This document shows positions 1-56,713 of a DNA stretch of 56,713 bases, in pieces (the first letter of the stretch is position 1; each line of letters opens with the position of its first letter). The stretch lies in the IMG/VR virus record IMGVR_UViG_3300027554_000002; one strand, written 5' to 3'. Made by a program: the position numbers and the translations under genes. This stretch comes from a virus. The notes below the pieces were generated by a model. That model was not told the DNA's origin and did not search any database. It worked only from the letters and a program-made list of their open reading frames with translations.

Positions 1-127
1 ACATTGGCTAGTGTAACGGATCGCTCTATCATCCATTCTAGCTGTTCCTCTTGGAATGCTTTTATGTCATCGCGTGTAAATAGTTCAGCGCTTAAATGCT
101 TTAATGCTTCCGCTAAATATTCATCAC
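1..127. repeat. Terminal duplication, copy 1: bases 1-127 are identical to 56587-56713 (closure overlap of a circular or circularly permuted genome)
   Basis: Direct comparison of both window ends: the same 127-nt string acattggctagtgtaacgg...ccgctaaatattcatcac. Confidence 0.95.
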
Positions 128-12291: not shown

Positions 12292-13185
12292 ATGCGATAT
12301 CTAGCTGAAAAAACTGTTGCGCTAATTGAAAGCGTAATTAAAGAAGACCAAGGCAGTAGTTACCGGGATTACTTAGGTAAAGTTATTCCGCATATAGGTG
12401 ACGCATACGAAGCCGATAGCTTTCCTTTTAGATCTCATATGGGTGCTTCATTAATTGGACGCGAATGCCCTCGCGAAATTTGGTATAGCTTTCGATGGGC
12501 AACAGACAAGAAACACAAAGGGCAGTTACTAAGATTATTTAATCGCGGGCATTTAGAAGAAGCGCGTTTCATAGCAATATTATTGGCTATAGGTGTAGAG
12601 GTTTACCAGCAGGACGAGAACGGTAAACAATTTCGAGTTTCTGATGTTGATGGACATTTTGGCGGTAGCGGAGACGGTAGGTTGGTAGGCGTTCCGGACT
12701 TGCCTGAAGGTACGCATGCGCTTGGCGAATTTAAAACTGCAAACGATAGTTCCTTTAAGAAAATAAAAGCGAACGGAGTGCGAGAAGAAAAAAACGAGCA
12801 CTATGTACAAATGAATATCTATATGGGTCGCATGGGATTACCCGCGGCTCTGTATTTAGTAGTTAATAAGAATGACGATGAAATATATGGAGAGATAGTT
12901 CCGTATAACAAACTTATAGATGACGAGTACACTAACAGAGCGCATCATTTAGTGTATACAGAAACACCTCCAGCTAAAATAAATGAGAGCGTTGGTTTCT
13001 GGAAGTGCCGTTTCTGTGACCACAAACCTGTTTGTCATATGAAAGCTGTTCCGGATGTTAACTGTCGTACCTGTTCACTTTCCAAATTGTTAAAAGATGG
13101 GCAATGGGCCTGTGGTAGGACAGGTGAAATTTTAGACAAGCAAGCGCAATACAACGCATGCGAAGACCACACGAGATTAATATGA
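12292..13185 (+). CDS. Cas4/RecB-family PD-(D/E)XK exonuclease with a 4-Cys cluster
   Basis: GEFKT (E-x-K), upstream Asp motifs, one N-terminal Cys (GRECPRE) plus C-terminal CRFCDHKPVC (C-x2-C-x5-C). Confidence 0.65.
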   Translation: MRYLAEKTVALIESVIKEDQGSSYRDYLGKVIPHIGDAYEADSFPFRSHMGASLIGRECPREIWYSFRWATDKKHKGQLLRLFNRGHLEEARFIAILLAIGVEVYQQDENGKQFRVSDVDGHFGGSGDGRLVGVPDLPEGTHALGEFKTANDSSFKKIKANGVREEKNEHYVQMNIYMGRMGLPAALYLVVNKNDDEIYGEIVPYNKLIDDEYTNRAHHLVYTETPPAKINESVGFWKCRFCDHKPVCHMKAVPDVNCRTCSLSKLLKDGQWACGRTGEILDKQAQYNACEDHTRLI

Positions 13186-13793
13186 TAGATTTATACAGCA
13201 CCTTAGGCGTAGTTCGTGAAGCTAGTGCGATAGAAATTAAAAACGCTTACAAGAAACTAGCTCAGAAATACCATCCGGATAAAGACCCTAGTCCTGAAGC
13301 TACTAAAAAATTCCAAGACATTAAATTCGCATATGAAATTCTAAGCGATTCAAATCGTCGAGAAGTTTATAACGAATCAGGTATGACAGAGCAGGTACTG
13401 ACGCCTGAAGATGAAGCTAAGTTTATTGTGAACGCTTTTATTGCAAAGATAATGTCTGAAAACGAATACCAAAGCATAGACTACGCTAAGGATCTTCAGA
13501 TTAATATTAAGCGCGAAATTAAAGCAGGTAAGAAGTTTCTAAAACAGCAAGAAAAGATTCTTAGTCGCGTTCAAAAGTTATCGGGTAAGTTTAAAGGCGA
13601 TCCGTTCGTAGATCATTTGGAAGCGCAAGAACATATAATCGAAGAACGTTTAGAAGGTGTAAGCGCAAAGATAGAAGTCTTTGAATTAGCGTTAACGCTA
13701 GCAAACAGTTATGAATACTTTGGTGACATTGAAGAACTAGAAGTAAATCCTGAACGTTCATTATTAGAAATGTTGACATCTCTGCATGATTAA
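13182..13793 (+). CDS. J-domain (DnaJ-like) co-chaperone protein (203 aa)
   Basis: DLYSTLGV...IKNAYKKLAQKYHPDK with the HPD tripeptide; ATGA overlap with the upstream gene. Confidence 0.85.
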   Translation: MIDLYSTLGVVREASAIEIKNAYKKLAQKYHPDKDPSPEATKKFQDIKFAYEILSDSNRREVYNESGMTEQVLTPEDEAKFIVNAFIAKIMSENEYQSIDYAKDLQINIKREIKAGKKFLKQQEKILSRVQKLSGKFKGDPFVDHLEAQEHIIEERLEGVSAKIEVFELALTLANSYEYFGDIEELEVNPERSLLEMLTSLHD

Positions 13794-15612
13794 GCCAAGA
13801 GACTATCAAGTAGCTGCTAGGGAAAGTATATGGAAATACTTTCGAGACGGTAAAACAGGCAATCCTCTTGTGGCTATGCCTACAGGTACGGGCAAGAGTA
13901 TTGTTATAGGCGATTTCTTACAGTCTGTTTATACCCATTACCCAATGCAGAAAATAATGGTATTAACTCACGTTAAAGAGTTAATTCAGCAGAATTATGA
14001 AAAGCTCATAATGATGTGGACTAATGCACCGGCGGGAATTTATAGCGCGGGTTTAAAACGCAGAGAAGCAAACGATAGCATAACGTTTGCTGGCATAGGC
14101 TCTGTAGCTAAGCGAGCAGATGAGTTCGGCTTTGTTGATTTGTTAATTATAGATGAAGCGCATCTAGTGAGCCCTAACGAAGGGACAATGTATCAAAAGT
14201 TTATTAAAGCACTAAAGAAATTCAACCCTCATTTAAAAATTATAGGCTTTACTGCTACGACATACCGACTTAAGCAAGGCAGTCTGATCGAAGAGGACGG
14301 TTTATTCACAGATATATGTTTCGACTTAACAACACCCGAATCATTTAATTGGCTTATACAAGAGGGCTATCTTATGCCACTTGTCCCAAAGAAAACGACC
14401 TCGGAATTAGAAGTTGATGGAGTTACTAAAAGAGGTGGAGAGTTTGTTGCTAAGGATTTGCAGCTAGCAGTAGACCGGGAAGAAATAACTTTCGCAGCAC
14501 TTAAGGAAGCTATAGAGCTAGGTCACGACAGACACTCGTGGCTTGTTTTTACTACAGGTATAGAACACGCTATACACACAAACGATATGCTCATTAGCTT
14601 TGGCATAGATAGCGAAGTGGTACATTCTGGAAATAAAGACTATCCGATGCTTCCAGGCCAGCGAGATGAAACACTGCGCAAATTAAAAGCGGGCGAGATA
14701 CGTGCTGTGGTTAATAACAACGTACTCACAACAGGCTTTGATCATCCCGCAATAGATTTTATAATTATGTTGCGCCCATCTGCTTCTGCTGGCTTGTGGG
14801 TTCAAATGCTAGGACGTGGCACCAGGCCTATGTACGCGGAAGGGTTTGACTTAACTACAAGAGAGGGGCGTATACAAGCTATAGAAGCAAGCCAAAAACA
14901 AAATTGCCTGGTGGCAGACTTCGCAGGTAATACAAGACGCCTGGGTCCTATTAATGATCCAATGCTGCCAACTAAGCGAGGAAAAAAGAAAGGAGGCGAA
15001 GCTCCTGTCAAAGTTTGTGACAGTTGCGATTGCTATGTTCACGCCAGCGTTCGTATATGTGAATACTGCGGATTTGAATTTCACTTTGCAACACATCTAA
15101 ACGAAACAGCAGCAACAGACGAATTAATAAAGGCGGACTTACCTGTAGTAGAGTCGTTTAAGATTGACCACATTACATATGGCTTGCATCATAAAGCAGG
15201 CAAACCGGACAGCATGAAAGTTTCTTATTATGCTGAGTACCAGATGTTTACTGAATATGTCTGTTTAGGGCATGGCGGCTTTATGCAAAAGAAAGCAGAA
15301 AAGTGGTGGGAAGTTCGCGCTACTTATAAACGGGCTCTTGAGGGAGAGTCTTTAGATGATGACGAAGCTGTTGAAACGCCTAGCACAGTTAAGCGAGCTA
15401 TTGAATTAGCGTCCGCACGTATAGCAACGCCTACACATTTGCGTGTATGGATTAATAAGAAGTACCCGGAAATTATGGATTATTGCTTTGACGGTACGGA
15501 TTTCGGGCAGACGGACGAGATAGCAGACTCGCCTACTGCTGTCAGTATTGCTGATAACAGTGCTAATCCAGTAGTAGATGTAGCTGATTTTGTGGACGAC
15601 ATCCCATTTTAG
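13786..15612 (+). CDS. SF2 (DEAH-box) DNA helicase with a Zn-ribbon and an SSB-like acidic C-terminal tip
   Basis: Walker A MPTGTGKS, DEAH (IIDEAHLV), motif VI QMLGRGTRP, CDSCDC...CEYCG, and the C-terminus DFVDDIPF. Confidence 0.85.
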   Translation: MIKPRDYQVAARESIWKYFRDGKTGNPLVAMPTGTGKSIVIGDFLQSVYTHYPMQKIMVLTHVKELIQQNYEKLIMMWTNAPAGIYSAGLKRREANDSITFAGIGSVAKRADEFGFVDLLIIDEAHLVSPNEGTMYQKFIKALKKFNPHLKIIGFTATTYRLKQGSLIEEDGLFTDICFDLTTPESFNWLIQEGYLMPLVPKKTTSELEVDGVTKRGGEFVAKDLQLAVDREEITFAALKEAIELGHDRHSWLVFTTGIEHAIHTNDMLISFGIDSEVVHSGNKDYPMLPGQRDETLRKLKAGEIRAVVNNNVLTTGFDHPAIDFIIMLRPSASAGLWVQMLGRGTRPMYAEGFDLTTREGRIQAIEASQKQNCLVADFAGNTRRLGPINDPMLPTKRGKKKGGEAPVKVCDSCDCYVHASVRICEYCGFEFHFATHLNETAATDELIKADLPVVESFKIDHITYGLHHKAGKPDSMKVSYYAEYQMFTEYVCLGHGGFMQKKAEKWWEVRATYKRALEGESLDDDEAVETPSTVKRAIELASARIATPTHLRVWINKKYPEIMDYCFDGTDFGQTDEIADSPTAVSIADNSANPVVDVADFVDDIPF

Positions 15613-18000: not shown

Positions 18001-18708
18001 ATGAAACCAAACGTTCAAGTTATCGAAAAACGAATCGCTTCTAATGGCGCCGAAATAGATATTGTAGATGTCTTTTTAACTATACAAGGGGAAGGACCTT
18101 TTACCGGTCGTCCTGCTATCTTTATTAGGCTCGCTGGATGCAACTTGCAATGTCCAGGCTGTGATACGGACTACACTAGCAATAGAGAATCTTTTGAATA
18201 CGGCAGTATTATTGATAAGGTAGTTGACTTAGATAATTTTAATGACTTTCATAATGCGCCTACTCTCGTTGTTATCACAGGAGGCGAACCTTTCAGACAG
18301 AACATTACTGCATTATGTAATAAACTTATCGAACTTACTTACGAAGTCCAAGTAGAAACAAATGGTTCTTTCGCGCCCATAGGTGCGCTAGATAAAAATG
18401 TGGTTATTGTGTGCAGTCCGAAAACTGGATCTGTAAACAAAGAAATCCAAGAACTTGCTTCTTGTTATAAATACGTCATGGCTGCTGACAGTGTAGATCC
18501 AGAAGACGGGTTACCTATACAAGCTTTACAGCATGCGGTAAAATCTAAGCTCGCACGTCCTCCCAAAGGTATGCCTGTATATTTGCAACCTATGGATGCG
18601 CAAGATACCAAAGTGAATGAGGCAAACTTAAAAGCCGTCCTCGATAGCTGCATGAAGTTTAATTACCGATTGCAAATTCAAATTCATAAAATTTTAGGAG
18701 TTGATTAA
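18001..18708 (+). CDS. queE: 7-carboxy-7-deazaguanine synthase QueE (radical SAM)
   Basis: FLTIQGEGPFTGRPAIFIRLAGCNLQCPGCDT (C-x3-C-x2-C). Confidence 0.85.
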   Translation: MKPNVQVIEKRIASNGAEIDIVDVFLTIQGEGPFTGRPAIFIRLAGCNLQCPGCDTDYTSNRESFEYGSIIDKVVDLDNFNDFHNAPTLVVITGGEPFRQNITALCNKLIELTYEVQVETNGSFAPIGALDKNVVIVCSPKTGSVNKEIQELASCYKYVMAADSVDPEDGLPIQALQHAVKSKLARPPKGMPVYLQPMDAQDTKVNEANLKAVLDSCMKFNYRLQIQIHKILGVD

Positions 18709-19400
18709 TGATACACACAGATAAGAAAGCGCTTGTCGTTCTTAGCGGCGGTCAAGATAGCGTTACGTGTTTAGGTGTTGCGCTTAAACAATATGGAAAC
18801 GTCGAGGCTATTTGTTTCGAGTATGGACAAAGACATACTATAGAGCTCGAACAAGCTGAACAGGTGTGTAGGATGTTTAACGTCAACCTTGTGGAGCATA
18901 CAATTCCTTCATTAGAAACGCTTGCTGATAGTGCGCTTATTGGAGGTAAAGGTGATGTCAGCGATAAGCATCATGACCACAAAGACTTGCCAGCTTCTTT
19001 TGTCCCAAATCGAAACGCGCTATTCATTACGATCGCTCATGCTTATGCGCAGAAGATAAAAGCTGATCATCTTATACTAGGCGTATGTGAAACAGATTAC
19101 AGCGGGTATCCAGACTGTCGTGCTGCATTTATTGATGCGATGGAAGAAACGTTAAACCTTGGCTATCAGACAGCCATTAGAATTAGAACTCCTTTAATGT
19201 ACATCGACAAAGCAGCTACTTTCCAATTAGCTGAAGATGTAGATTTCTTAAATGTTGTGTTGGAACATAGCCACACCTGCTATAACGGCATCCGTAATAC
19301 TAAACACGAATGGGGGTATGGTTGTGCTCAATGTCCCGCTTGTGAATTGCGGGCAAAAGGTTACGATGCTTATCTAGCAAATAGAAAGCAAACCGCTTAG
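18708..19400 (+). CDS. queC: 7-cyano-7-deazaguanine (preQ0) synthase QueC
   Basis: VVLSGGQDSVTC PP-loop and a C-terminal Zn Cys cluster (CYNG...CAQCPAC). At 230 aa it has no fused amidotransferase domain. Confidence 0.85.
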   Translation: MIHTDKKALVVLSGGQDSVTCLGVALKQYGNVEAICFEYGQRHTIELEQAEQVCRMFNVNLVEHTIPSLETLADSALIGGKGDVSDKHHDHKDLPASFVPNRNALFITIAHAYAQKIKADHLILGVCETDYSGYPDCRAAFIDAMEETLNLGYQTAIRIRTPLMYIDKAATFQLAEDVDFLNVVLEHSHTCYNGIRNTKHEWGYGCAQCPACELRAKGYDAYLANRKQTA

Positions 19401-19430
19401 CATAGGCTTACAACTTAAAAGGAATACTAC

Positions 19431-19859
19431 ATGAAAATAATAGCAAGCAGGTATCATGATTTCTGTATGGGGCATCGTGTTGTAGGTCATGAAGGCAAGT
19501 GCAAGAACTTTCACGGCCATAACTACCGTTTCACATTTGAGTGTGAATGTCTAACTGTTGGAGGGCTTGATGTTCTTGGGCGTGTTATAGATTTTAGTGT
19601 TATCAAGTCTACTCTTTGTCAGTGGCTTGAAGAAAACTGGGATCATAAAATGATGCTGTGGGACCAAGATCCTTATGTAGACGCTATGAAAGAAATGGAC
19701 AACGAAGTATTCTCTGTGCCATTTAATCCAACAGCTGAAAACATAGGCAAATATTTCTTAGAAGAGATTGCGCCGGAATTGTTATTAGATACTGGAGTCT
19801 CTTTAACTCGCATACAAGTTGAAGAGACTCGTAAGTGCTCAGCTATAGTGGAACTCTAA
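19431..19859 (+). CDS. queD: 6-carboxy-5,6,7,8-tetrahydropterin synthase QueD
   Basis: FCMGHRV...CKNFHGHNYRF His triad pattern. Confidence 0.8.
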   Translation: MKIIASRYHDFCMGHRVVGHEGKCKNFHGHNYRFTFECECLTVGGLDVLGRVIDFSVIKSTLCQWLEENWDHKMMLWDQDPYVDAMKEMDNEVFSVPFNPTAENIGKYFLEEIAPELLLDTGVSLTRIQVEETRKCSAIVEL

Positions 19860-19861
19860 TA

Positions 19862-20431
19862 ATGGATCGTAAAGAGCTGGAACTTATTGTTGGCCGCATG
19901 CTATTTGAAATTGAGCCTACTGAAGAAGATATCTTACGCGAAGGGCTTTTAGAAACACCTGTTCGCGTTGCCAAAGCTATGGAGCATTGGTTTAATGGAT
20001 ATGATAAAAACCCTAAAGACATCCTCAAAGTATTTGAGGATGGAGCTGAAGACTATGATCAAATGATTGTAGTTAAAGACATCCCCATCTATAGCAAGTG
20101 TGAACACCACATGGCGGATATCTTTGGGACTTGCACTATCGCTTATGTACCTAACGGTAAGATTGTAGGCTTGTCTAAATTGTCCAGGCTTGCTGACATG
20201 TACGCTCGTCGTTTGCAAGTGCAAGAACGTTTGACGCAACAGATAGCGAACGCTTTACAGAAACATCTAGAGCCTATAGGTGTTGGCGTTATGATTAAGG
20301 CACGTCATATGTGTATGGAGTCTCGCGGCATTTGCCAGCAAGGACACTGCACAATTACATCCGCTTTGCATGGTGCTATTAAAAACAACACCACAGCAAG
20401 AGCTGAGTTCTTATCGCTAGCTAGTAGTTAA
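19862..20431 (+). CDS. folE: GTP cyclohydrolase I FolE
   Basis: ETPVRVAKA, SKCEHHM, GLSKLSR, QVQERLT motifs. Start taken at ATG 19862, just after the queD stop. Confidence 0.85.
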   Translation: MDRKELELIVGRMLFEIEPTEEDILREGLLETPVRVAKAMEHWFNGYDKNPKDILKVFEDGAEDYDQMIVVKDIPIYSKCEHHMADIFGTCTIAYVPNGKIVGLSKLSRLADMYARRLQVQERLTQQIANALQKHLEPIGVGVMIKARHMCMESRGICQQGHCTITSALHGAIKNNTTARAEFLSLASS

Positions 20432-20450
20432 ACCTTGGATTGTCAGCAAC

Positions 20451-21368
20451 ATGAATATCTATATGGCGGCACTGCACTCGAACGGGTATAGACACACAAA
20501 CCGCTACGAGAAGTTAAACGATAGAGAGAAACATGTTGTTGACAATCTCCCACATCTTTTAGAATCGTACCACTACATACACAAAGACAGTTTTGTTCAA
20601 GCTATACGCGAGAAAGGTGATTTGGTTTTTCTTGATTCCGGCGCATTCTCTGCTTATACTCTAGGCGTTACTATTGACTTGCCTGGGTATTGCGATTACA
20701 TAAAAAAGAACGCTGATATACTACGCTATGAAGATAATTCTGTTATGGCTTCTGTGTTGGATGGTATTGGCGACCCTCAAAAGACTTATGAAAACCAATT
20801 AGCGATGGAGTCGTTAGGTGTACGTCCGCTGCCCTGCTTTCACTACGGTGAAGACGAACGTTATTTTGAATGGTATATGAAAAACTACGATTACATTACT
20901 ATAGGAGGCATGGTAGGCAAGTCTAGTCAAAATTTAATTAAATGGCTAGACAGATTATGGGAGCGTTATGTTATCGACGGAAGCGGTACGCCTCGTGTTA
21001 AACTGCACGCATTCGGTATTACTGCTATACCTATAATGAAAAGATATCCATGGTACAGTGTAGATTCGTCCTCTTGGATTCAGTCAGCAGCGTTCGGAAC
21101 TGTAATAACTCCGGAGTTTGGAGCAGTGAGCGTATCCTCACAATCGCCTAGCAGGCACAAAGCAGGACAACACGTAAGCACGTTAAGACATTTGGATCGC
21201 AAGTATGTGATGGATATGTTTATCGAACAAGGTTTTGACTATGAAAGGCTGTCCACAGTATACGAATCTAGAGCAGCGTATAACTTGTGGTCATTCACTG
21301 AAATAAGCAAACAACTAGCAGCAATAGGAAATAAGACTTTTCAACCCGACATACAGGAATTATTTTAA
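20451..21368 (+). CDS. dpdA: DpdA-like DNA-guanine transglycosylase (TGT superfamily)
   Basis: FLDSGAFS, LHAFGIT, VDSSSW resemble TGT/DpdA active-site segments. The gene directly follows the preQ0 pathway genes. Confidence 0.7.
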   Translation: MNIYMAALHSNGYRHTNRYEKLNDREKHVVDNLPHLLESYHYIHKDSFVQAIREKGDLVFLDSGAFSAYTLGVTIDLPGYCDYIKKNADILRYEDNSVMASVLDGIGDPQKTYENQLAMESLGVRPLPCFHYGEDERYFEWYMKNYDYITIGGMVGKSSQNLIKWLDRLWERYVIDGSGTPRVKLHAFGITAIPIMKRYPWYSVDSSSWIQSAAFGTVITPEFGAVSVSSQSPSRHKAGQHVSTLRHLDRKYVMDMFIEQGFDYERLSTVYESRAAYNLWSFTEISKQLAAIGNKTFQPDIQELF

Positions 21369-25852: not shown

Positions 25853-27265
25853 TTAAACTTCCAGTAATCGTAATTCGGTTTGGTGTATGTTTTGTCTGAA
25901 GTGTGTATATTCAAGCGCATCTTCAAGTATAGCTAGAAATATATAATCACCTCTAAACCATGACACCTCGTTAGGGTATGGTGAAATTAAAAAAGGTCGG
26001 CTCGCATTTTCTTTTTCAAATTGAGACATAACTAATCTATCATTATTACTCATGTGATCTAAATTAAGTGAAGCGCTTCGGATTTTGTTCTGTTCCCTAG
26101 CTGCTATAGAATGACCGCTAAGCGTTTTTTGTAAATTGGGTGAATCTAAAAACGTTATTGAACTCGGATAGCTAAAATTTTCCTCTAGTGTGATTGTATT
26201 ACCCACCATAGCCATTCGTAATGATACGTTGTCGCCGCTTGTCACTGCACCGGCATAACCCGATTGAATAGTAGTACCAAAACTAGATTCGGCAGGTCCG
26301 TTGTTTGTAGGTGCGGCACTTGCGACCGTTTGTATCACCATCTTATCAATACTTATATAATGGTCACGCGCTGATAAAGTAAGGTTGTGTAATTGTCCTG
26401 CTATTAAATTAATAGAACGCAATTCCAACCAGACCCAACCTTGATTGACTAATTCGCCGTTTACCCAAAAATGTGAAGAGTTTATACCGTCAAACGTACT
26501 GTAGATCGAATTACCATCAGTTGAATACATACGTAAATATATTTTATACGAACCGCTTACCGTTGCATTAAATTTAAATTCAATTTTTGGCCCTTCATTA
26601 GCCGACCAGTAAAATTGTGAACCATTTTTATAAAGTCTTATATCATCAGACGCGCCAACATCACCAACACTTTCCCATGTATCAGAATCGTTAGGAGTTA
26701 CAACCCCGTTTTCAGCTTCTATACATACAACTCTTGTTACATCATCTTGACGGTATATACCATCACTAACATAAACTGGTGGTGGTTCAGTTGGTGGCAC
26801 GTAACCATAATTATGTTCGATTGATATTTTAAAAGACAACGCACCAATCAAAGCACCGAAAAAATAACTAATAACATCGTTTAACGGGTCATTATCTTTT
26901 GATGCCCAAGGGTCAATCCCCCATCGAAATAAACCTTGTGGCAATATTTCGCCAATTTCCATCCAGTCACTACCACCCACCGCCGTTGTTGCGTCTTGTA
27001 CCGTTGTACTGTTATAAAGTTGGAAAAGTACACGCGCATTATTAGGCAGGTTGTGTCCGCAAATTGCAAAAAAATCTATTTGTCTTTCTTCAGCAAACAC
27101 ACCAGTAATACTAATATAGGTTGTAGATAAATCGGTCCATTTTGTTTGTCGTCCACGGTATACCGTTCGTAAATTATCAAGTGAAGTAACAGGCTCTACA
27201 TTTGACGATAAATTAGCAATAGGAACATAATTATCTTTGCTCAAAACTAAATGCTTGCAATCCAT
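25853..27265 (-). CDS. Distal tail protein with a central CBM6/35-like carbohydrate-binding module (470 aa)
   Basis: KIEFKFNATVSGSYKIYLRMYS...VNGELV...WVWLELRSINLIAGQLHNLTLSA...IDKMVI. Confidence 0.5.
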   Translation of the reverse strand: MDCKHLVLSKDNYVPIANLSSNVEPVTSLDNLRTVYRGRQTKWTDLSTTYISITGVFAEERQIDFFAICGHNLPNNARVLFQLYNSTTVQDATTAVGGSDWMEIGEILPQGLFRWGIDPWASKDNDPLNDVISYFFGALIGALSFKISIEHNYGYVPPTEPPPVYVSDGIYRQDDVTRVVCIEAENGVVTPNDSDTWESVGDVGASDDIRLYKNGSQFYWSANEGPKIEFKFNATVSGSYKIYLRMYSTDGNSIYSTFDGINSSHFWVNGELVNQGWVWLELRSINLIAGQLHNLTLSARDHYISIDKMVIQTVASAAPTNNGPAESSFGTTIQSGYAGAVTSGDNVSLRMAMVGNTITLEENFSYPSSITFLDSPNLQKTLSGHSIAAREQNKIRSASLNLDHMSNNDRLVMSQFEKENASRPFLISPYPNEVSWFRGDYIFLAILEDALEYTHFRQNIHQTELRLLEV

Positions 27266-39238: not shown

Positions 39239-40045
39239 CTATTTTTCCGGTTTAGGGCCACCAATTGTAGTGCCAGCAGCTTTAGCCATCGCTTCTGCTC
39301 TTGGCCTATCTGTATTAAGAAGCGCACCTTGTTCAGTCATATTCCAATTTGCATTACTGAACGGGTTAGCGCCTCCGCCTCCTGTACCGCCACTGCCGCC
39401 ACTGCCGCCTACTTGCGACTCCGGATACCAGTGTAGAGTCGTGGCTTGCTTCTCTGCTAACCACACAGTAGCGTCCACGCCTGGAGTTACATTAGGCATA
39501 TCAGCTCTTGTTATTACACGTCCGTCCTCAGACACTTCGAAGATGCTTTCGTACATGAGCGCATCGCTAATTCCGTGCTCGTGTAACTTAGCCTTACCTG
39601 CTGACTCGCGAATATGATCTTGTATCTTACGACTTGTATCTTGTTGCTGGTAAGTCTGTATCTGTGTTTCTGCTTCTGCATGCGATGCTTTCAAAGTATC
39701 AAGTTCGCGTTGCACTGGCCCCACTAAAGCTTGAGCACGTTTATCAGCAAGTTCTTTGATCTTAGTTTCATCCAGCTTACCTTCTGCGGCAGCTTCAAGT
39801 TCAGGTATACGGTCAAGTGATGCTTGCACTTCAGTGGGATCTAAAGAACCAAATTTCGAAAGCTTTGCTTTGGTTTCTTTGTGATCATTACGTTCTTTCG
39901 CAATACTACCTTCCAAACGAATTACGCTATCGTTACGCTCAACTTGCGATGAAGTCTTTAACACAAACTTACCGTCAGCTTCTACATATAGATATTCAAA
40001 TCCAGCAGGAATAAGATCCTTACTAGCGTACTCTTTGTCTAACAT
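39239..40045 (-). CDS. Scaffolding protein (268 aa)
   Basis: Charged helical protein directly upstream of the capsid gene; Gly-rich C-terminal segment. Confidence 0.6.
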   Translation of the reverse strand: MLDKEYASKDLIPAGFEYLYVEADGKFVLKTSSQVERNDSVIRLEGSIAKERNDHKETKAKLSKFGSLDPTEVQASLDRIPELEAAAEGKLDETKIKELADKRAQALVGPVQRELDTLKASHAEAETQIQTYQQQDTSRKIQDHIRESAGKAKLHEHGISDALMYESIFEVSEDGRVITRADMPNVTPGVDATVWLAEKQATTLHWYPESQVGGSGGSGGTGGGGANPFSNANWNMTEQGALLNTDRPRAEAMAKAAGTTIGGPKPEK

Positions 40046-40078: not shown

Positions 40079-40198
40079 TTAAGAAAATACAGAAACCATT
40101 GCCATGATAACCCAATAAATTAGGATTGCCACAACTACTACCGCTACTATAGTGATCGGCTTATTATCTGCCCATTGATCTTTAAACAAATCAATCAC
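40079..40198 (-). CDS. Possible 39-aa single-pass membrane peptide (GTG or TTG start); not in the ORF track
   Basis: VIDLFKDQWADNKPITIVAVVVVAILIYWVIMAMVSVFS read from the minus strand. It overlaps the stop of the upstream gene. Confidence 0.25.
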   Translation of the reverse strand: MIDLFKDQWADNKPITIVAVVVVAILIYWVIMAMVSVFS

Positions 40199-40865
40199 GC
40201 GCTTGCACACCTTTTGAACGTTCATATGTTCTACCTGTAAAATAAGAAACGAAAATGCCCATTAACAATGACAACCATTGCCAATTATCGGCATATGATT
40301 TTGTTAATCGTACTGAATAAGAATCACGCTTATCAACAAAAGTTAAACATGATTCAAAACTTTTTTCAAATTCCTTTTTATCTATTTTAAAACAATTAGT
40401 CATTATCCAACTATCGGTAAAACCATCAGCTATTACAGCGACAATTAACGATATAATCATAATTGACGCTACAACAAACAAACGTCTAATAATCATAGGC
40501 CGTGTATGGCTTATGTATTTATCACCGCTTTGTATTTCCGTTCGTGCAGTTTGTTGTACTTGTGCAAAATTTCTAACCGAGGCCTCTAAAATAGATAATT
40601 CGTATTGACTGAATAATTCTTGTTTGCGTGATTTAATTTCAAGTTCAGCCAACATAATACGCCGCCGACCTTCGGCGCTTTGTGTGGCGCGTAATACTTG
40701 ATTTTCAAAACTAGGGTCATTCTTATCAAAGCCTAATTTATCGGCTAATATATCGGCAACCACACCACCCACCGGCCCGCCACCGATTTGCAAACCCGCA
40801 ACAACGGTTTTAGCACCAACACCCAACAATGCTTTTAACCATCGTTTAATTTTCACGATTTTCAA
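40191..40865 (-). CDS. Membrane protein (224 aa), holin candidate
   Basis: Hydrophobic segments (GVGAKTVVAGLQIGGGPVGGVVA; LFVVASIMIISLIVAVIA; WLSLLMGIFVSYF) in the cassette with the endolysin. Resemblance to 3-TM GTA-type holins is from memory only. Confidence 0.4.
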   Translation of the reverse strand: MKIVKIKRWLKALLGVGAKTVVAGLQIGGGPVGGVVADILADKLGFDKNDPSFENQVLRATQSAEGRRRIMLAELEIKSRKQELFSQYELSILEASVRNFAQVQQTARTEIQSGDKYISHTRPMIIRRLFVVASIMIISLIVAVIADGFTDSWIMTNCFKIDKKEFEKSFESCLTFVDKRDSYSVRLTKSYADNWQWLSLLMGIFVSYFTGRTYERSKGVQARD

Positions 40866-41328
40866 ACAACTTCCGCTTAACTTCTAAATTTACATCTGAA
40901 TACCATTCAACATGACGCAAAATAGGCAGCTTGCATTTCATAGAAAAGCCCATGCTCATACCAGTAGGGTCGGCAATACCTTCAGGAAGTACCCACGTTA
41001 ATCTGACTGATGTGGGGGTTTTAGATGGTGGAAAATTTTGTAATACCAGCGGCTTGCCATTCTTAAGTAGTCTTGCGGGAAAACGAACCGTTTCACCAAA
41101 TGATAAAAACGCGGTAGCTGTACCCGACGTGGGCGCACAAAACCGCTTCTTTATAAATTGAACATCACCCTGTAATCCAGCGTCAGTTAAATGTATATTT
41201 GTTATTGTTTGATCTTTATAAATTGGGGATGCTATGTCATAGATGGCAAAGCAAATAATCAAACCAATAATAAATTTTAAAAACCCATGTAACCAATTTA
41301 CAGACTGTACAATTATTTTAGGTATCAC
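40846..41328 (-). CDS. N-terminally membrane-anchored protein (160 aa)
   Basis: FLKFIIGLIICFAIYDIA signal-anchor; ATGA overlap with the upstream gene. Confidence 0.5.
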   Translation of the reverse strand: MIPKIIVQSVNWLHGFLKFIIGLIICFAIYDIASPIYKDQTITNIHLTDAGLQGDVQFIKKRFCAPTSGTATAFLSFGETVRFPARLLKNGKPLVLQNFPPSKTPTSVRLTWVLPEGIADPTGMSMGFSMKCKLPILRHVEWYSDVNLEVKRKLFENREN

Positions 41329-41612
41329 CCGTAGAACTCCTTTAGAATATCAATTAATCCAGAAATATTTTTTAATGCGCCCGACTGATATGCTGCTAAC
41401 CCTGATAAAAATAACGGCCCCGCCCATTTTAGCGAATCCCCAAAATATTTAAACACTGCGATTATCCAGCGTATTAGTTTGCTTATAATCCGAAACGTTT
41501 TCCTGTATTGCATAGTACGACGATGACTAGCAATAACCCACGCAATTTGTTCCTGTGTTAGTTGCTTGCACGGTTCCGCTTGCGCATTTTCTATCGGTGT
41601 ATCTTCGTTCAA
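41325..41612 (-). CDS. Small protein with hydrophobic/amphipathic C-terminal half (95 aa), holin/antiholin candidate
   Basis: IISKLIRWIIAVFKYF and WAGPLFLSGLAAY; sits next to the endolysin. Confidence 0.4.
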   Translation of the reverse strand: MNEDTPIENAQAEPCKQLTQEQIAWVIASHRRTMQYRKTFRIISKLIRWIIAVFKYFGDSLKWAGPLFLSGLAAYQSGALKNISGLIDILKEFYG

Positions 41613-41647
41613 TTTTTCTTTTACCGTAGTTATTCATAAAACTACTT

Positions 41648-42286
41648 TTAAGCGATTAGCGTATCGGTTTTATCGGCTAGCTCCATTAAATCAGCATAAA
41701 CCCGTTGACTATTCCAACCAAAACTATACTTCCGTTTATGCGGCTTCTGAATAGCGACCGCTGTATAATGTGCATCTTGTAAACAGTTTAAACGTGTGGC
41801 TAGTTTACGTTCACCTTGTTTCTTTTTTCTATGTAAAACAAATAATTCTAATTGTTTTAATGACTGTTCACCGATTAGACCATCAAACGTTAAATCATCA
41901 CCGTAAATTTGTTTACCGTTGCGTATGTGATTAAAACTAGTTATGGCTTGCTGTAAATGTTTTATAGCCACCACTATACCAGCAGGCCCGCCAGTATCAA
42001 CAACCGTTTGCGCAATTAATGGTGACACTTCATTGATCAGATGAATGTTAGGACCGTACCAAAAAAGAGAAGTCCAAATTTGAGCGGCTGTATAGCGGTC
42101 TAAATATTCAATTGAACCGGTATACCCTGCACGATCAGCCGATAATTTGCGTATGCCGTAGCGTGTTGGATGATCTTCTTTATCATTAGTAAAAACGGAA
42201 CCTTCACGCTCTAAAATTTGGTTGATCACTTGTCTAACGTGACTAGGTAAAAAATCAAACTCGATTGTATTGTATGGAACTTTCAT
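41648..42286 (-). CDS. Endolysin: GH108-like lysozyme domain plus PG_binding_3-like domain
   Basis: ILEREGSVFTNDKEDHPTRYGI (EGG-yvnd-D-GG-T-yGI pattern); C-terminal FDGLIGEQSLKQL. Confidence 0.7.
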   Translation of the reverse strand: MKVPYNTIEFDFLPSHVRQVINQILEREGSVFTNDKEDHPTRYGIRKLSADRAGYTGSIEYLDRYTAAQIWTSLFWYGPNIHLINEVSPLIAQTVVDTGGPAGIVVAIKHLQQAITSFNHIRNGKQIYGDDLTFDGLIGEQSLKQLELFVLHRKKKQGERKLATRLNCLQDAHYTAVAIQKPHKRKYSFGWNSQRVYADLMELADKTDTLIA

Positions 42287-42549
42287 TTTAGTTTTTGCGC
42301 CAATCCATAAGACTTATCAAGATTAAACATAGAACCATAACTACCCAAACCGCTATGCTTTATTATGCGTTCAATCAAATGTGATTTATTAATGTGGTTA
42401 TACGGTCGCACCCATCCAAGCCCTATTTTTTCATTAGAGTAATAACTATCGTTATTTATAACAATATTACTTATTCCAGAACCACCCAGCCCGTTATGCG
42501 TTAAGTTGCGTTCAGTTATACGATTCTGTTTTAATCTAAGTTTGTTCAT
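42283..42549 (-). CDS. Hypothetical protein (88 aa) with two H-x-GLG-S-x-G repeats
   Basis: ORF track; ATGA overlap with the endolysin gene. Confidence 0.5.
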   Translation of the reverse strand: MNKLRLKQNRITERNLTHNGLGGSGISNIVINNDSYYSNEKIGLGWVRPYNHINKSHLIERIIKHSGLGSYGSMFNLDKSYGLAQKLK

Positions 42550-48370: not shown

Positions 48371-48814
48371 TTATCCAGTCATATTATCTTTATAGTATTC
48401 ACGGAACCATTTCTTAAAATCGTCAATACTAACTTCAGCTCTCATATCTACTAAACTGAATTCATCTGTGTTAACAAAACAACAGACATCAAGAATAACT
48501 TTCCATTGTTTGCGGTTCTGCCTGTACATTAAAATAGGCCTCCCGTCTGTACGTGCAGCAGATGCGACAGTTTGTTTCCACCAGCTATTGATGCTTAGTT
48601 GCTCCTGTCGTTTTACTTCTATGGACAAGCCAAACGGGTTTGTTAAGTCATCCCCGCCTACAGCACTTTGATTCTGATTGCGTTGAAAAGGAAAGTCCCT
48701 AGGCTCCAATTCAAGCATACCCAACTGTTTACGAACATCGCATACGATTTCATTAAGCATTGTGGCTATCTCACGCTCAGCGCTTTGCCCTTTGGTACGG
48801 ATATTAATACCCAT
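48371..48814 (-). CDS. PD-(D/E)XK-type nuclease, Holliday-junction-resolvase-like (147 aa)
   Basis: GQSAEREIATML...GGDDL...SIEVKRQE (D...E-x-K arrangement). Confidence 0.5.
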   Translation of the reverse strand: MGINIRTKGQSAEREIATMLNEIVCDVRKQLGMLELEPRDFPFQRNQNQSAVGGDDLTNPFGLSIEVKRQEQLSINSWWKQTVASAARTDGRPILMYRQNRKQWKVILDVCCFVNTDEFSLVDMRAEVSIDDFKKWFREYYKDNMTG

Positions 48815-50358
48815 TACTTGGCTCCCCGATTACGCGCTCGACGTAGCAGTTCGTCTAGCTTGCTCATTACAGCGTCGCCTACAGCGTCGTGCGTAGCTGT
48901 TACAACAGGATTAGCAACTTGCTTACGTAATACTTTCATCTCCGCTAAGTGCTCACTCTCGCGCTTACGTAAGCGCATGGAAGCAGCTCTTAACGCTGTC
49001 ATCTCTTCCTTGTATTGCTTGTTTAGCAGCATAGACTTCTGCAAGTTACCTTTCAATATACCTACTTGCTTGTTTAGACCCGCCCGTCTAATTTCAGAGC
49101 TTTCAAATAATGCTGCGAGTCGTATAACCTTCGATTCTAAATCTAAGTATCGAATGTCTGTTGTTTCATCTAATCCCGGATCAGTAACTACCGGCGGCGC
49201 TACAGGTTTTTTATTTATAACTGGAGGAGGTATTGGCGTTACAGGTTTAATAGCAGGATAGCCACCTTTAGGCATATTCCATACACGCACATATTCAACT
49301 AATACCTCGTGATGGTGAACACGTTTACGTGAGTCTATCCAGCAACGAGCAGACAAGCCCGGATCAGGTGGTTGTTTAGGCCCGTTAGACTTATTCTCCC
49401 ATGGCGATATATTTCCATGCGCTGGATCTTTGCAACCACTGCACATCTCGCAACTCATGATTAGATATGCGTTCATATTTACGCCACGGTAATCCGTGTT
49501 AATTAATATACCATCGCAATAGAAGCGCAAGGTACCATCTAATTCCCACACTAAAGTGAACGTATGCCATCCGTTTCTTAAATCAATACCAAAATGCGCT
49601 TTCAAATCATAAGCGTTAATAGCGCTGTTTTCGCGTATAGGTGGAGGCGTATCTTTAGACGCACCTCCTATACATTTCATGAACGCTAAGTTACCGAAAT
49701 CCGGATGGCTTTCTGGACACTCCACTTCTGGAAAATCAATTTCAACTACAGTTGGATTACTATCGTATTCAGTCCCAGCAATTACTTCAGCAGGGTTATC
49801 AGGCGTATCTACTTGTCCGCCTTTAGTTGCACCCATAGCCCACATCGACCAACGCACTCCGTCCATTACTTGATTTTCGAAGTTAACTCTAGTTTCTACA
49901 ATACTGCCTTTACCGAAAGTCATAACAGGCTTAGACCAGTCTGTTACATGTCGTTTATGTTTCTCAGACCACTTACGTGTCCACGTACTAAGCCAAGGCG
50001 CATACGGAATCATATTGCCCATAGGCTTCTGTTTATTGTCACTCCCTATAAAATTATTACGATACGGGTTATGCACTGGATCAATGTATTGTTTTAATAC
50101 CAGCAAATTGTTTCGAGTGAATTGTACTTTGTTACGGTACTTGTTCATCAGTGCAGCATGACGTCCAGGTACTTTTATCCCGTCTAACTTATAGTCTATG
50201 TCGCCATTAATTGTTAAGTGCCTATATCCTGCGCGATGTAAATCATCTTCTTCAAAAGTGTCCTGATACCACTTCTCTAAGCCTTTATCAAACTCGTCGT
50301 TCCATGCAAGCTCTACATCTGGATATGAGTTCGTAGGTAAGGTAGGTGTAAACGACAT
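48814..50358 (-). CDS. GH16-family-like glycoside hydrolase with a Pro-rich linker and a C-terminal coiled coil (514 aa)
   Basis: WSMWAMG, catalytic-type EIDFPE (E-x-D-x-x-E, nt 49743..49726), WHTFTLVWELDGTLRFYCDG, AYLIMSCEM. Confidence 0.7.
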   Translation of the reverse strand: MSFTPTLPTNSYPDVELAWNDEFDKGLEKWYQDTFEEDDLHRAGYRHLTINGDIDYKLDGIKVPGRHAALMNKYRNKVQFTRNNLLVLKQYIDPVHNPYRNNFIGSDNKQKPMGNMIPYAPWLSTWTRKWSEKHKRHVTDWSKPVMTFGKGSIVETRVNFENQVMDGVRWSMWAMGATKGGQVDTPDNPAEVIAGTEYDSNPTVVEIDFPEVECPESHPDFGNLAFMKCIGGASKDTPPPIRENSAINAYDLKAHFGIDLRNGWHTFTLVWELDGTLRFYCDGILINTDYRGVNMNAYLIMSCEMCSGCKDPAHGNISPWENKSNGPKQPPDPGLSARCWIDSRKRVHHHEVLVEYVRVWNMPKGGYPAIKPVTPIPPPVINKKPVAPPVVTDPGLDETTDIRYLDLESKVIRLAALFESSEIRRAGLNKQVGILKGNLQKSMLLNKQYKEEMTALRAASMRLRKRESEHLAEMKVLRKQVANPVVTATHDAVGDAVMSKLDELLRRARNRGAK

Positions 50359-50375
50359 ATTCTTTTTCCTAAGGA

Positions 50376-50564
50376 TTATATTTCTAGTATTAAATTGTCA
50401 GCAGTAATAACAGTGCATATTGTTGGTCCGCTACTGATGCCGGTTTGGGTCATCCATGTTTGAACGTAATAACAAACTAAATCCCCTTCAGTAAATAAAC
50501 GGGGCAGGGTAATTTCTTGATCCGGACGATATCGAAAACTAAAATTAGCAAGCTCGCCATTCAA
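50376..50564 (-). CDS. Hypothetical ORF (62 aa from TTG; no ATG, no RBS), in frame with the upstream TGA stop
   Basis: The frame is open from 50630 down to 50376. Gene packing (17 nt to the next gene) argues that it is coding. Confidence 0.35.
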   Translation of the reverse strand: MNGELANFSFRYRPDQEITLPRLFTEGDLVCYYVQTWMTQTGISSGPTICTVITADNLILEI

Positions 50565-50594
50565 AGTATGATAAACAAGATAAGACTCAACGCT

Positions 50595-50619
50595 ATCCGC
50601 CTCCAGAGTAGAGGCGGAT
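50595..50619 (-). other. Perfect 9-bp hairpin beginning 11 nt after the TGA stop of the secreted-protein gene
   Basis: atccgcctc-N7-gaggcggat; no following U-tract on the minus strand. Confidence 0.6.
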
Positions 50620-50630
50620 GAGCTGTCAGT

Positions 50631-51923
50631 TCAAGGTATTAACAATTGACAAGCGGCAAGGTCTGCTTGAGCAGTTGCTAGATCCGCTTGAGCAGTTGCT
50701 AGATCCGTGGCTACCAGTAGCGCTGCCTGCTCTGTAGTAGCGAGATCAGCTTCGCAGGTAGCCAAGTCGGCTTGTGCAGTTGCAAGCGCTGCGAGCGCGG
50801 CGGTCTCCGCTTGCTGTGCTGTTAGCAAATCGGCTTCCGCTTGCAGTTGCGCAGCTTCAGCATTAGCTTGGGCCGTCTCCGCAGCAATTTGCGCAGCTTC
50901 GGCAGTAGCAACATCAGCTTCTAGTCCAATGATTGTCCCTTCTGCTGTCGCTAAATCTGCTTCCGCTGCCGCCTGCAAAGCCTGCGCATCAAGTATATCT
51001 TGCGCTGTACCTGTATTGGCTAGTAGTGCAGCCGCAAGGTCCGCTTCCGCTGTTGCTAGCGCTGCTTCTGCTGCTGCTTGAGCTGCCTGGGCATCTAGCA
51101 CGTCTTGAGCCGTTGAGTTCCCGGCAATTGCCGCAGCCAAATCTATCTGCGCCTGTTCTAAGTCCGCTTCTGTTTGAGTTAACGTTGCAAGAAGAGTTAA
51201 GTTAGCAGTTGTCAAACCTAAGTTAGCAGCTTCTATCACAGCACAATCAAGAGGGGCTGTCACACTGTTAGCTAAGTTAGAAGGACTTGATATGGAACCG
51301 TCCGGATATATCGCTGTTACGTAATACTCATTACCTACTACATGGTTTTCCACAGCATAGCTAGGTGAACCATTTGTGATAGTGTATTCATAAACATCAT
51401 TTCGATATACATTCCACTTAACTGAGTTAACAGGTGGCACCCAGGTCAACAGATCGTTATCATCTAACGAAACATTAGTTGGGATCGCATTAGCTGTAGA
51501 GCCTGAAAAGACTGAACATTCCGTGCTACCTCCTGCACCTATAGGCGTAGTGAAATCATAAGTTACGCTTTGCGAAGCAGAGGGCTGAGAACATTCTTCA
51601 TTCGCGTTACAACCTATAACAAAATATTTATAGGTCTCGTTTTCGCTAACTTCAGTATCTGTCCATGCTGTTCCATTAATAAATGATCCAACTTCATGTC
51701 CATCACGGTATACGCGATAAGATACAGCGCTAGAAGTTTGCTCCCAGTTTAAAACAACGCCACCTGGTTGAGATACGACAACTAGATTAACAGGTACAGG
51801 TTCCCCGTTATCCATTGTAATACCGTTGCCATGCGTGTGATTCGCTGTTTCGTGCGCATAAGCAAGGGTCGTGGATAGTGTAGCTAGTATAGCGAAAGGT
51901 ATAGCTATATGGGCTCGCTTCAT
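50631..51923 (-). CDS. Sec-secreted protein: signal peptide, two FN3-like beta modules, ~190-aa Ala-rich repeat region (430 aa)
   Basis: MKRAHIAIPFAILATLSTTLAYA/HE; LNWEQTSSAVSYRVYRDG and LTWVPPVNSVKWNVYRND repeats; AQADLATAQADLA-type heptads. Confidence 0.75.
   Translation of the reverse strand: MKRAHIAIPFAILATLSTTLAYAHETANHTHGNGITMDNGEPVPVNLVVVSQPGGVVLNWEQTSSAVSYRVYRDGHEVGSFINGTAWTDTEVSENETYKYFVIGCNANEECSQPSASQSVTYDFTTPIGAGGSTECSVFSGSTANAIPTNVSLDDNDLLTWVPPVNSVKWNVYRNDVYEYTITNGSPSYAVENHVVGNEYYVTAIYPDGSISSPSNLANSVTAPLDCAVIEAANLGLTTANLTLLATLTQTEADLEQAQIDLAAAIAGNSTAQDVLDAQAAQAAAEAALATAEADLAAALLANTGTAQDILDAQALQAAAEADLATAEGTIIGLEADVATAEAAQIAAETAQANAEAAQLQAEADLLTAQQAETAALAALATAQADLATCEADLATTEQAALLVATDLATAQADLATAQADLAACQLLIP
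50665..50706. repeat. Perfect 21-bp tandem duplication (gcttgagcagttgctagatcc x2) in the Ala-rich coding region
   Basis: Read directly; encodes the repeated LATAQAD heptad. Confidence 0.9.
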
Positions 51924-56546: not shown

Positions 56547-56713
56547 TTATCTCCTCTGTTGTAACTGTTGTAACTGTTGTATATGTACATTGGCTAGTGT
56601 AACGGATCGCTCTATCATCCATTCTAGCTGTTCCTCTTGGAATGCTTTTATGTCATCGCGTGTAAATAGTTCAGCGCTTAAATGCTTTAATGCTTCCGCT
56701 AAATATTCATCAC
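56547..56713 (-). CDS. 3' part of the junction-spanning gene (same gene as 1..302; the segment 56587..56713 is the duplicate of 1..127)
   Basis: Frame continuity across the junction; TAA at 56549-56547. Confidence 0.6.
   Translation of the reverse strand, partial: DEYLAEALKHLSAELFTRDDIKAFQEEQLEWMIERSVTLANVHIQQLQQLQQRR
56556..56581. repeat. 9-bp tandem repeat ctgttgtaa x2.9 (encodes QQLQQLQQ on the minus strand)
   Basis: Read directly. Confidence 0.85.
56587..56713. repeat. Terminal duplication, copy 2 (identical to 1-127)
   Basis: Direct comparison. Confidence 0.95.

Follow-up and report, generated by a model that had tools for sequence, protein, structure and literature searches.

A very divergent, leaderless GH16-family protein encoded outside the tail module of a phage genome

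The IMG/VR virus record IMGVR_UViG_3300027554_000002 (56,713 nt, here called the window, meaning the whole stretch of DNA that was analysed) encodes on its minus strand, at 48814..50358, a 514-residue protein. Sequence profiles and structural models strongly support its membership, as a very divergent member, in glycoside hydrolase family 16 (GH16, clan GH-B). The same evidence strongly supports the prediction of a retaining endo-β-glycanase, and we consider it highly probable that the protein is an active GH16-type enzyme. Our preferred reading of its role, which we hold to be about as likely to be right as wrong, is that of a leaderless marine-phage glycanase that is made late and freed at lysis to digest the surrounding polysaccharide. 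The original prediction had assigned the protein to GH16 by eye from four sequence motifs; that assignment is correct, as borne out by the predicted fold, by a family profile and by conservation of the catalytic motif.

A divergent GH16 domain with an invariant catalytic motif

The fold was predicted with two AlphaFold2 (AF2) models. The full-length model, with a mean predicted local distance difference test score (pLDDT) of 73.9 and a core mostly above 80, retrieved only GH16 enzymes among its top 50 Foldseek matches in the PDB (best E-value 7.6e-11). A model of the catalytic domain alone (aa 1-362; predicted template modelling score, pTM, 0.81) likewise gave a top 50 composed entirely of GH16 enzymes, the best being 2vy0 at 8.3e-12. 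Template modelling (TM) scores of the two models, normalised to the target, ranged from 0.5 to 0.7, the highest (0.70) being that of the domain-only model with 6jh5. The model contains about 100 residues more than known GH16 enzymes and has low-confidence insertions at aa 37-70 and 311-327. Absence of a GH16 fold from structure prediction had been named beforehand as grounds for abandoning the assignment; both models match GH16.

The open reading frame (ORF) starts with ATG, with an AGGA ribosome-binding site about 10 nt 5′ of it. Its parts are as follows.

48814..50358, minus strand: leaderless GH16-family gene, complete (ORF listing)
49273..50358, minus strand: predicted catalytic β-jelly-roll domain, aa 1-362 (domain-only AF2 model, Foldseek, family profile)
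49831..49854, minus strand: R169-WSMWAMG strand, counterpart of the GH16 'WPAxW' strand (alignment)
49743-49726, minus strand: EIDFPE catalytic motif of the β-bulge type E-x-D-x-x-E, aa 206-211 (recomputed coordinates, conservation, alignment)
49444..49569, minus strand: WHTFTLVWELDGTLRFYCDG and AYLIMSCEM strands (motif coordinates, alignment)
49186..49248, minus strand: Pro-rich linker KPVTPIPPPVINKKPVAPPVV, aa 371-391 (sequence)
48817..49161, minus strand: conserved helical, coiled-coil-like tail module, aa 400-514 (AF2, homolog tails, heptad scan)
48820..48876, minus strand: terminal cationic amphipathic helix, aa 495-513, AVMSKLDELLRRARNRGAK (hydrophobic moment, charge, recurring motif)

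When the coordinates were recomputed, the four motifs lay in the order and at the places given by the original prediction: WSMWAMG at aa 170-176 (nt 49851-49831), EIDFPE at exactly nt 49743..49726, WHTFTLVWELDGTLRFYCDG at aa 264-283 and AYLIMSCEM at aa 297-305. EIDFPE falls on a strand predicted in the AF2 models (aa 206-213). By analogy with the GH16 family, E206 would serve as the nucleophile, D208 as the helper residue and E211 as the acid/base on this β-bulged strand. The motif alone is no proof, since E-x-D-x-x-E arises in 11% of shuffles of the protein. Its significance comes from the combination of the fold match, the family-profile match and strict conservation in 72 of 72 relatives.

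Single-sequence and library searches detect little of this relationship. PHROGs contained no match to the protein, an NCBIfam scan of the protein, two of its homologs and the lysis ORFs gave nothing above noise, and a single-sequence phmmer search of the PDB reached E ~0.4, to lichenases. The WHTFTLVWELDGTLRFYCDG/AYLIMSCEM region is the sole stretch matched by the single-sequence Pfam and PDB searches. A homolog search recovered 10 relatives at 33-54% identity, all of them lacking annotation and all retaining E206, D208 and E211. An exhaustive profile search extended the family to 108 representative clusters (50% identity), 72 of which were aligned for conservation analysis. Only five positions are invariant across the 72: R169, E206, D208, E211 and E304. 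W173 is nearly invariant among the relatives, and H265 is invariant among 11 close homologs.

The profile built from these 72 members matches 42 PDB chains at E≤0.01, every one a GH16-family enzyme, with κ-carrageenase 9xkt the best at 6.2e-8. The family E-i-D-x-x-E aligns on EIDFPE of 9xkt and on EIDIME of glucanase 3atg, and R169 aligns with the first position of 'CPAFW' in 9xkt. More distant relatives, recovered by the family profile at E≤1e-49, themselves exceed the gathering score of the Pfam GH16 model PF00722 (22 bits): P0032 at 40.4 bits, P0029 at 37, P0051 at 31.5 and P0030 at 25.4.

The closest PDB matches are spread with similar scores over laminarinases, lichenases, agarases, porphyranases, carrageenases, endo-β-galactosidases and mycobacterial GH16_9. 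Among the subfamilies GH16_1 to GH16_23 defined by Viborg et al. 2019, the ranked PDB sequence and structure matches favour none, in line with the original prediction, according to which sequence alone does not reveal the substrate. The motif had also been described as the type found in laminarinases, agarases and carrageenases, which fits the definition by which the β-bulge E-x-D-x-x-E separates the laminarinase/agarase/porphyranase/carrageenase half of GH16 from the lichenase/XTH half (PMC6827312). Sequence and model comparison thus indicate the β-bulge half, with no finer placement. The clade may have its own specificity, as hinted by Arg169, the invariant Glu304 and a conserved Tyr198 that precedes the catalytic strand.

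A helical tail with conserved ends

No signal peptide was found in the 514-aa protein, the best N-terminal hydrophobic window scoring -0.43, and no transmembrane segment was found in it either; the protein had already been described as lacking a signal peptide. C-terminal to the catalytic domain, the linker region is predicted to be disordered (AF2 pLDDT <50 over aa 371-405), and the Pro-rich linker varies in length and sequence among homologs. The tail is modelled by AF2 as one long helix (aa 400-482) and a second helix (aa 495-513), with pLDDT ~70-89 over most of its length. A crude heptad scan gave a moderate hydrophobic occupancy of 0.62-0.75 at the a/d positions. The original prediction had described a heptad-rich region of ~110 aa that could trimerise or dock onto the virion; a helical tail compatible with a coiled coil is borne out by the model and the heptad scan, and docking is weighed below.

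In eight homolog tails a variable coil is bounded by the conserved motifs L[AG]DL[YF]E at the start and SxxRLxxLLxRAR at the end. Because both ends are conserved across these eight homologs, we regard the tail as a true module rather than a random coiled coil. The hydrophobic moment of the terminal 18-mer is 0.57, compared with a background 95th percentile of 0.50. The last 20 residues carry a net charge of +3 in the window protein and mostly +3 to +9 in close relatives. Three close relatives without the tail (P0006, P0007 and P0009) have basic N-terminal extensions instead, and other leaderless relatives end in β-rich C-terminal regions with no coil, some of them weakly FN3-like. A tail-only profile run against 5.8 billion proteins returned nothing at E≤0.01, and the parent proteins were also missed. 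A scaffold-like, capsid-targeting tail was considered and rejected, as the tail does not resemble the C-terminal end of the scaffold protein (39239-40045).

Gene order in the window

A 127-bp exact direct repeat (window 1-127 and 56587-56713) identifies the window as a circularly assembled complete genome of ~56.6 kb, and an identical GH16-like protein is found on 8 assembled contigs of ~56.6-56.7 kb. The large terminase shares 75% identity with its counterpart in Alteromonas phage vB_AcoS-R7M (R7M; Queuovirinae, Amoyvirus) and ~67% with those of 58-60-kb Vibrio siphoviruses. The window also carries, on the plus strand at 18001-21368, a complete 7-deazaguanine (queuosine-type) gene set with QueE-like, QueC-like and QueD-like proteins, a GTP cyclohydrolase and a queuine tRNA-ribosyltransferase/DpdA-like protein (PHROG E-values 1e-48 to 1e-80). 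This set fits the Queuovirinae affiliation and implies that the phage DNA is modified.

On the minus strand, small early-type genes are followed by a gene for an exported 430-aa protein, the GH16 gene, an endonuclease gene, the small and large terminase genes (terS and terL), the portal gene and the head genes; the tape measure and tail genes come after these. The earlier placement of the gene between a secreted-protein gene and the resolvase/terminase genes, outside the tail module, agrees with this order. Features around the gene are listed here.

48812..48816, minus strand: TAATG junction, where the GH16 stop and the endonuclease ATG overlap by 1 nt (sequence)
50359..50630, minus strand: intergenic region 5′ of the GH16 gene, 272 nt (sequence)
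50631..51923, minus strand: exported 430-aa neighbour, directly upstream in gene order (Sec signal, Pfam)
40191-42549 (wider stretch to 42858), minus strand: lysis cassette among the head genes, with head-morphogenesis and scaffold on either side (PHROGs, transmembrane segments)

The TAATG overlap suggests that the GH16 gene is transcribed together with the packaging operon and translationally coupled to it. The downstream gene (48371-48814, minus strand) is named inconsistently: it matches PHROG 244 'RusA-like Holliday junction resolvase' at 6.6e-22 and Pfam PDDEXK_15, and the corresponding R7M gene bears the label 'endonuclease'. In the related loci L003 and L010, too, this gene comes before terS. 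In the 272-nt gap, just past the stop of the upstream neighbour, lies a GC-rich hairpin of 9 bp (arms 50619-50611 and 50603-50595), and a promoter/terminator scan around the GH16 gene gave site counts at shuffle level. A 62-aa ORF with a TTG start in the gap (50376-50564, minus strand) was left uncalled in two independent annotations of identical contigs, has no family match and is probably not a gene.

Within the lysis cassette, the endolysin (41648-42286) matches phrog_315 at 5e-18 and also phrog_12853. Small membrane proteins and a holin-like protein of 224 aa surround it, and the GC content of the stretch is ~37%. In R7M, a holin and a lysozyme lie between terS and terL instead. The pre-terminase position of the GH16 gene had raised the possibility that it encodes the endolysin itself; this was rejected in view of the separate endolysin/holin cassette at 40191-42549. 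A 470-aa protein of the distal tail region (25853-27265, minus strand) has weak, sub-threshold similarity to domains of carbohydrate-binding type, GH115_C (5.5e-4) and Golvesin_C (8e-3), making it a sequence-based candidate for the phage's actual tail-borne glycan-binding protein.

Distribution among phage loci

Eleven genomic contexts were compared, namely the window and loci L003-L007 and L009-L013. The GH16-like gene lies in a tail module in none of the 11. An endolysin gene is found within three genes of it in L004, L007, L011 and L013. In L007 and L011 the GH16-like coding sequence overlaps that of the gene downstream, and in L013 those of the genes on both sides. In the window, L010 and L006, one endonuclease or Mor gene separates it from terS, and Mor is also the next gene in L013. 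In L005 it overlaps the gene of a 633-aa protein with many Ig-like and LRR-like repeats. A separate endolysin is present in the window and in the six other loci with identified lysis genes (L003, L004, L005, L007, L011 and L013), and the endolysins of related loci are of the GH108 or M15 type. On the 67-kb phage contig L003, the 796-aa large terminase (12916-15306) has a weak Hint_2 match, which suggests an intein insertion.

The phage backbones vary, with Terminase_3, Terminase_6N or Queuovirinae-type packaging genes and different portal families. Since the terminase and portal families differ among the loci, the gene evidently moves between backbones, and its occurrence on different backbones disfavours a specific docking site on the virion. 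The gene is missing from the isolated relative R7M, in which a phosphodiesterase gene fills the equivalent slot. A tblastn search with the protein against 50,697 GenBank phage records gave no homolog, a megablast search with 12 kb gave no match among GenBank phages, and a pattern scan of IMG/VR confirmed no relative of the gene. The different content of the R7M slot, together with the lack of a homolog in GenBank phages, leads us to view the GH16 gene as accessory cargo.

The one match in genome collections is a prophage-like region on a contig of uncultured Granulosicoccus (L004). There the GH16-like gene is followed by genes for a lipoprotein, a 1104-aa protein, a leaderless polysaccharide lyase of family PL14 (12776-13654, plus strand, 4e-17) and an endolysin 59% identical to that of the window. 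The Granulosicoccus metagenome-assembled genome was considered as the host and not adopted: despite the 59% identity of the endolysins, its GC content there is 53%, compared with 41.7% in the window. A second tie to PL14 is found in P0036 (869 aa), a GH16-like/PL14 domain fusion. Bacterial-type relatives bear signal peptides and N-terminal FN3 or RGI-lyase-type modules, which argues that the fold works outside the cell.

Exported neighbours

The 430-aa neighbour has a Sec signal peptide, two FN3-like modules of the RGI-lyase β-sheet type (Pfam PF18370, 1.7e-07) and an Ala/Gln/Leu-rich C-terminal coiled coil ending in AACQLLIP. Its C-terminal half contains ADLATAQ-type repeats with periodic Cys and has a weak coiled-coil match to the PgrA surface-exclusion domain (E 0.0095). 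The gene is preceded by a sigma-70-like promoter matching 10 of 12 consensus positions (52090-52063), followed by a hairpin past its stop (50619-50595), and is atypical in GC content (47.8%) and GC skew; it looks like a moron.

A homolog of this neighbour lies upstream of the GH16-like gene in L010 (37% identity, 5e-46) and probably also in L009, where a C-terminal match (3.7e-4) is short and compositionally biased and the downstream genes differ. The exported neighbour is therefore syntenic with the GH16-like gene in at least three phages, counting the probable L009 match, and the pair may form a two-gene module, putatively linked in function. A homolog search with the N-terminal 242 aa of the neighbour returned only itself, within the sensitivity limit set by the word index. 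Its FN3 modules resemble those fused to bacterial relatives at E 0.004-0.01 in a 72-sequence database, a similarity that is generic only, and a Rosetta-stone link between the two was not supported beyond it.

In L003, L007 and L011, the GH16-like gene is followed by a gene for a conserved lipoprotein (41-63% identity among the three), which could be a spanin-like or partner protein. These lipoproteins have 177-197 aa and the lipobox S/G-C-A-F, and their genes (L003 9519-10052, L007 9386-9973, L011 7413-8006) follow the GH16-like gene directly and precede that of a GH108 endolysin. They have no match in Pfam, PHROGs or NCBIfam.

Proposed release at lysis and alternative roles

Under the reading that we prefer, the enzyme would be made late in the cytoplasm, 'late' being a matter of gene order only. 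Such synthesis is probable because the protein has no signal peptide or transmembrane segment and because the endonuclease-terS-terL packaging operon begins within the stop codon of its gene. Once the separate holin/endolysin cassette opens the cell, the enzyme would meet a β-linked polysaccharide for the first time. Outside, it would cleave a matrix glycan, which may be host capsule, exopolysaccharide (EPS), biofilm or an algal polysaccharide gel, and this would free progeny phage and help them to spread. The Pro-rich linker and helical tail would probably oligomerise the enzyme, and the terminal cationic helix would probably hold it on anionic surfaces such as lipopolysaccharide (LPS), membrane debris or acidic polysaccharide.

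The original prediction had allowed either a virion-docked or a lysis-released enzyme. We favour the second because the gene is absent from the tail module in all 11 contexts, occurs on unrelated backbones, lies repeatedly beside lysis genes and is missing from isolated relatives. The association with PL14, a second type of matrix-degrading enzyme, in the Granulosicoccus locus and in P0036 lends further support.

Several observations weigh against this reading. In the window itself the lysis cassette is ~6.5 kb from the GH16 gene, and L009 has the gene in the midst of replication genes. Any gene placed between the nin-like region and the terminase genes will have lysis genes nearby, making adjacency weak evidence. 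No sigma-70-like minus-strand promoter was found in the 272-nt gap by a consensus scan. The amphipathic-helix signal is modest (0.57 vs 0.50) and not family-wide, and the helical tail could equally be explained as a virion adaptor. Finally, PF00722 gives the window protein only 12.4 bits, below its cut-off of 22 (E 0.11), over aa 254-290 only.

A depolymerase carried on the virion, with the helical tail trimerising and docking the enzyme to capsid or tail, and with the incoming virion clearing capsule or EPS on its way to the receptor, would also explain the lack of a leader, which virion proteins share. The gene appears to head the packaging/structural block, the conserved ends of the tail module are adaptor-like, and the repeat protein encoded by the overlapping gene in L005 is possibly structural. 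We nevertheless consider this unlikely, given that none of the 11 contexts places the gene in a tail module and that docking specific to one backbone is hard to reconcile with its presence on unrelated backbones and its absence from the closest isolated phages sharing structural genes. In addition, the close homologs P0006, P0007 and P0009 have no tail, the fold is not a trimeric β-helix, and the conserved neighbours are exported through Sec or lipoprotein signals and cannot be parts of the virion. It is very improbable that the protein is instead a non-catalytic, lectin-like binder or an accessory cell-wall lysin. The concanavalin-like fold does occur in lectins and structural proteins, and the matches in BFVD include LamG-like and structural proteins; endolysin genes are also close by in four contexts. 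Invariance of the catalytic triad in 72 of 72 relatives, however, points to selection for catalysis, the best structural matches are all enzymes, and a bona fide endolysin is encoded separately in the window and in the six loci with identified lysis genes. We know of no GH16 member that cleaves peptidoglycan.

The exported neighbours suggest a cassette of two components, in which the GH16-coiled-coil protein and the FN3-coiled-coil protein meet in the envelope after holin action. Such a cassette would be a split version of the single chains of bacteria that combine a signal peptide, FN3 and GH16, and we regard this reading as improbable. The neighbour lies upstream in the window, in L010 and probably in L009, bacterial relatives fuse FN3/RGI-lyase-type modules to the same catalytic domain, and other subclades have the conserved lipoprotein gene immediately downstream. 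The hairpin and the 272-nt gap between the two genes, the generic nature of the FN3 similarity, the short and biased L009 match, the absence of the partner from most contexts and the frequency of lipoprotein and moron genes in this slot anyway all argue against it. An auxiliary metabolic gene (AMG) that boosts host breakdown of algal glycans such as laminarin, agar, porphyran or carrageenan to fuel replication, the role that has been proposed for the GH16 'laminarinase' genes of kelp-associated phages, seems to us distinctly unlikely. Viral GH16 AMGs are reported from macroalgal viromes, and the only relative in genome collections is from uncultured Granulosicoccus, a genus named among the dominant predicted hosts of phages on kelp (PMC11126160). 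The family also has ties to PL14 lyases and secreted FN3-bearing bacterial enzymes, and marine agarases, porphyranases, carrageenases and laminarinases are found among the proteins closest to it in structure. A leaderless cytoplasmic enzyme would, however, be cut off from extracellular or periplasmic polysaccharide until lysis, and the position at the lysis/packaging boundary suggests expression too late for fuelling replication. Judged by its PDB matches, the clade is near no host-type GH16 subfamily; a recent transfer from host to phage is not visible, and the conserved tail would have no role.

Release at lysis, our preferred reading, may be taken one step further, to a virion-independent class of 'egress depolymerase': leaderless, mobile GH16 cargo at the lysis/packaging boundary of phages that are not related, freed through the holin/endolysin lesion and positioned on envelope or matrix by its own coiled coil and cationic helix or by an exported partner inherited along with it. 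That partner would be the FN3-coiled-coil protein here and the lipoprotein in other subclades, giving a split form of bacterial FN3-GH16 enzymes. We offer this proposal as speculation with little probability.

Implications

GH16 genes of phages are usually classed as 'auxiliary metabolic' laminarinases. Because Pfam, PHROGs and NCBIfam give no above-threshold match to the window protein and its close homologs, the clade of ~108 representative clusters is probably undercounted in virome censuses of carbohydrate-active enzymes. The position of the gene and the leaderless architecture suggest that the enzyme acts in lysis or egress, not in metabolism or adsorption. If this is true, the clade would represent a phage route through polysaccharide barriers that uses neither a tailspike nor a β-helix, and could provide a small soluble enzyme scaffold for degrading biofilm or algal glycans. 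Judging by the invariant Arg169 and Glu304, the clade may have a specificity beyond the characterised GH16 subfamilies.

Relation to known systems

In predicted fold, profile homology and type of catalytic motif, the window protein resembles the GH16 reference enzymes: Pyrococcus furiosus LamA (2VY0), a marine laminarinase (6JH5), agarases and porphyranases (1O4Z, 3JUU, 5T9X) and κ-carrageenases (9XKT/9XLC, 5OCQ). A conserved His on the neighbouring strand has been described for several GH16 subfamilies (PMC6827312), and H265 is its counterpart here. Identity to the reference enzymes is only 10-16%. Unlike them, the window protein has an Arg at the first WPAxW-type position and an invariant Glu304, and it is leaderless with a C-terminal helical tail, whereas the reference enzymes carry carbohydrate-binding modules.

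The only biochemically characterised viral GH16 enzyme is the endo-β-1,3/1,4-glucanase A94L of the chlorovirus PBCV-1 (PMC6827312). Both A94L and the window protein are virus-encoded and have the GH16 fold, by prediction in our protein; A94L stands outside any CAZy subfamily, and the matches of the window protein favour none. A94L differs in coming from a virus of a eukaryotic alga, in its low identity (~13-14%), in having no coiled-coil tail and in its different genomic logic. Two of the four best BFVD matches of our protein, the nameless entries M1HYC6 and M1HLJ2, are presumably chlorovirus proteins, judging by their accession pattern.

Phage tailspike and tail-fibre depolymerases are usually trimeric β-helices with an N-terminal virion anchor and are encoded in the tail module. 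They share the proposed purpose of the window protein, the removal of a polysaccharide barrier around the host. The window protein departs from them in its predicted β-jelly roll, its C-terminal tail and the location of its gene, which is away from the tail module in all 11 contexts. Some endolysins of phages of Gram-negative bacteria carry a C-terminal cationic amphipathic helix, and the window protein is like them in being a leaderless enzyme of the lytic cycle with a short, basic and, by prediction, amphipathic end. It differs from them in having a GH16 glycanase domain rather than a peptidoglycan hydrolase, and binding of its helix to membrane or LPS is purely inferred.

Viral GH16 'laminarinase' AMGs have been reported from macroalgal viromes and kelp-associated phages; those of kelp phages are PF00722-positive and cluster with Flavobacteriaceae laminarinases, and Granulosicoccus is reported to be among the dominant predicted phage hosts on kelp (PMC11126160). 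Like these, the window gene is a phage-borne GH16 gene among viral hallmark genes, probably from a macroalga-associated community. The window clade is distinguished from them by the sub-cut-off Pfam score of the window protein, by its own invariant residues and tail and by its place at the lysis/packaging boundary. With that score, no homolog among GenBank phages and no subfamily favoured by its PDB matches, the window protein falls outside the 'laminarinase' AMGs as they have been described. In a recent soil-virome preprint, GH16 serves as a control for which 'no reported lysis role' is noted (10.1101/2024.12.20.629349).

GH16 enzymes of viral origin have been described before, and the clade is not categorically new. 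What sets it apart are a window protein and close homologs that standard annotation libraries miss, its own invariant residues, a leaderless architecture with a cationic helical tail and a position at the boundary between lysis and packaging genes.

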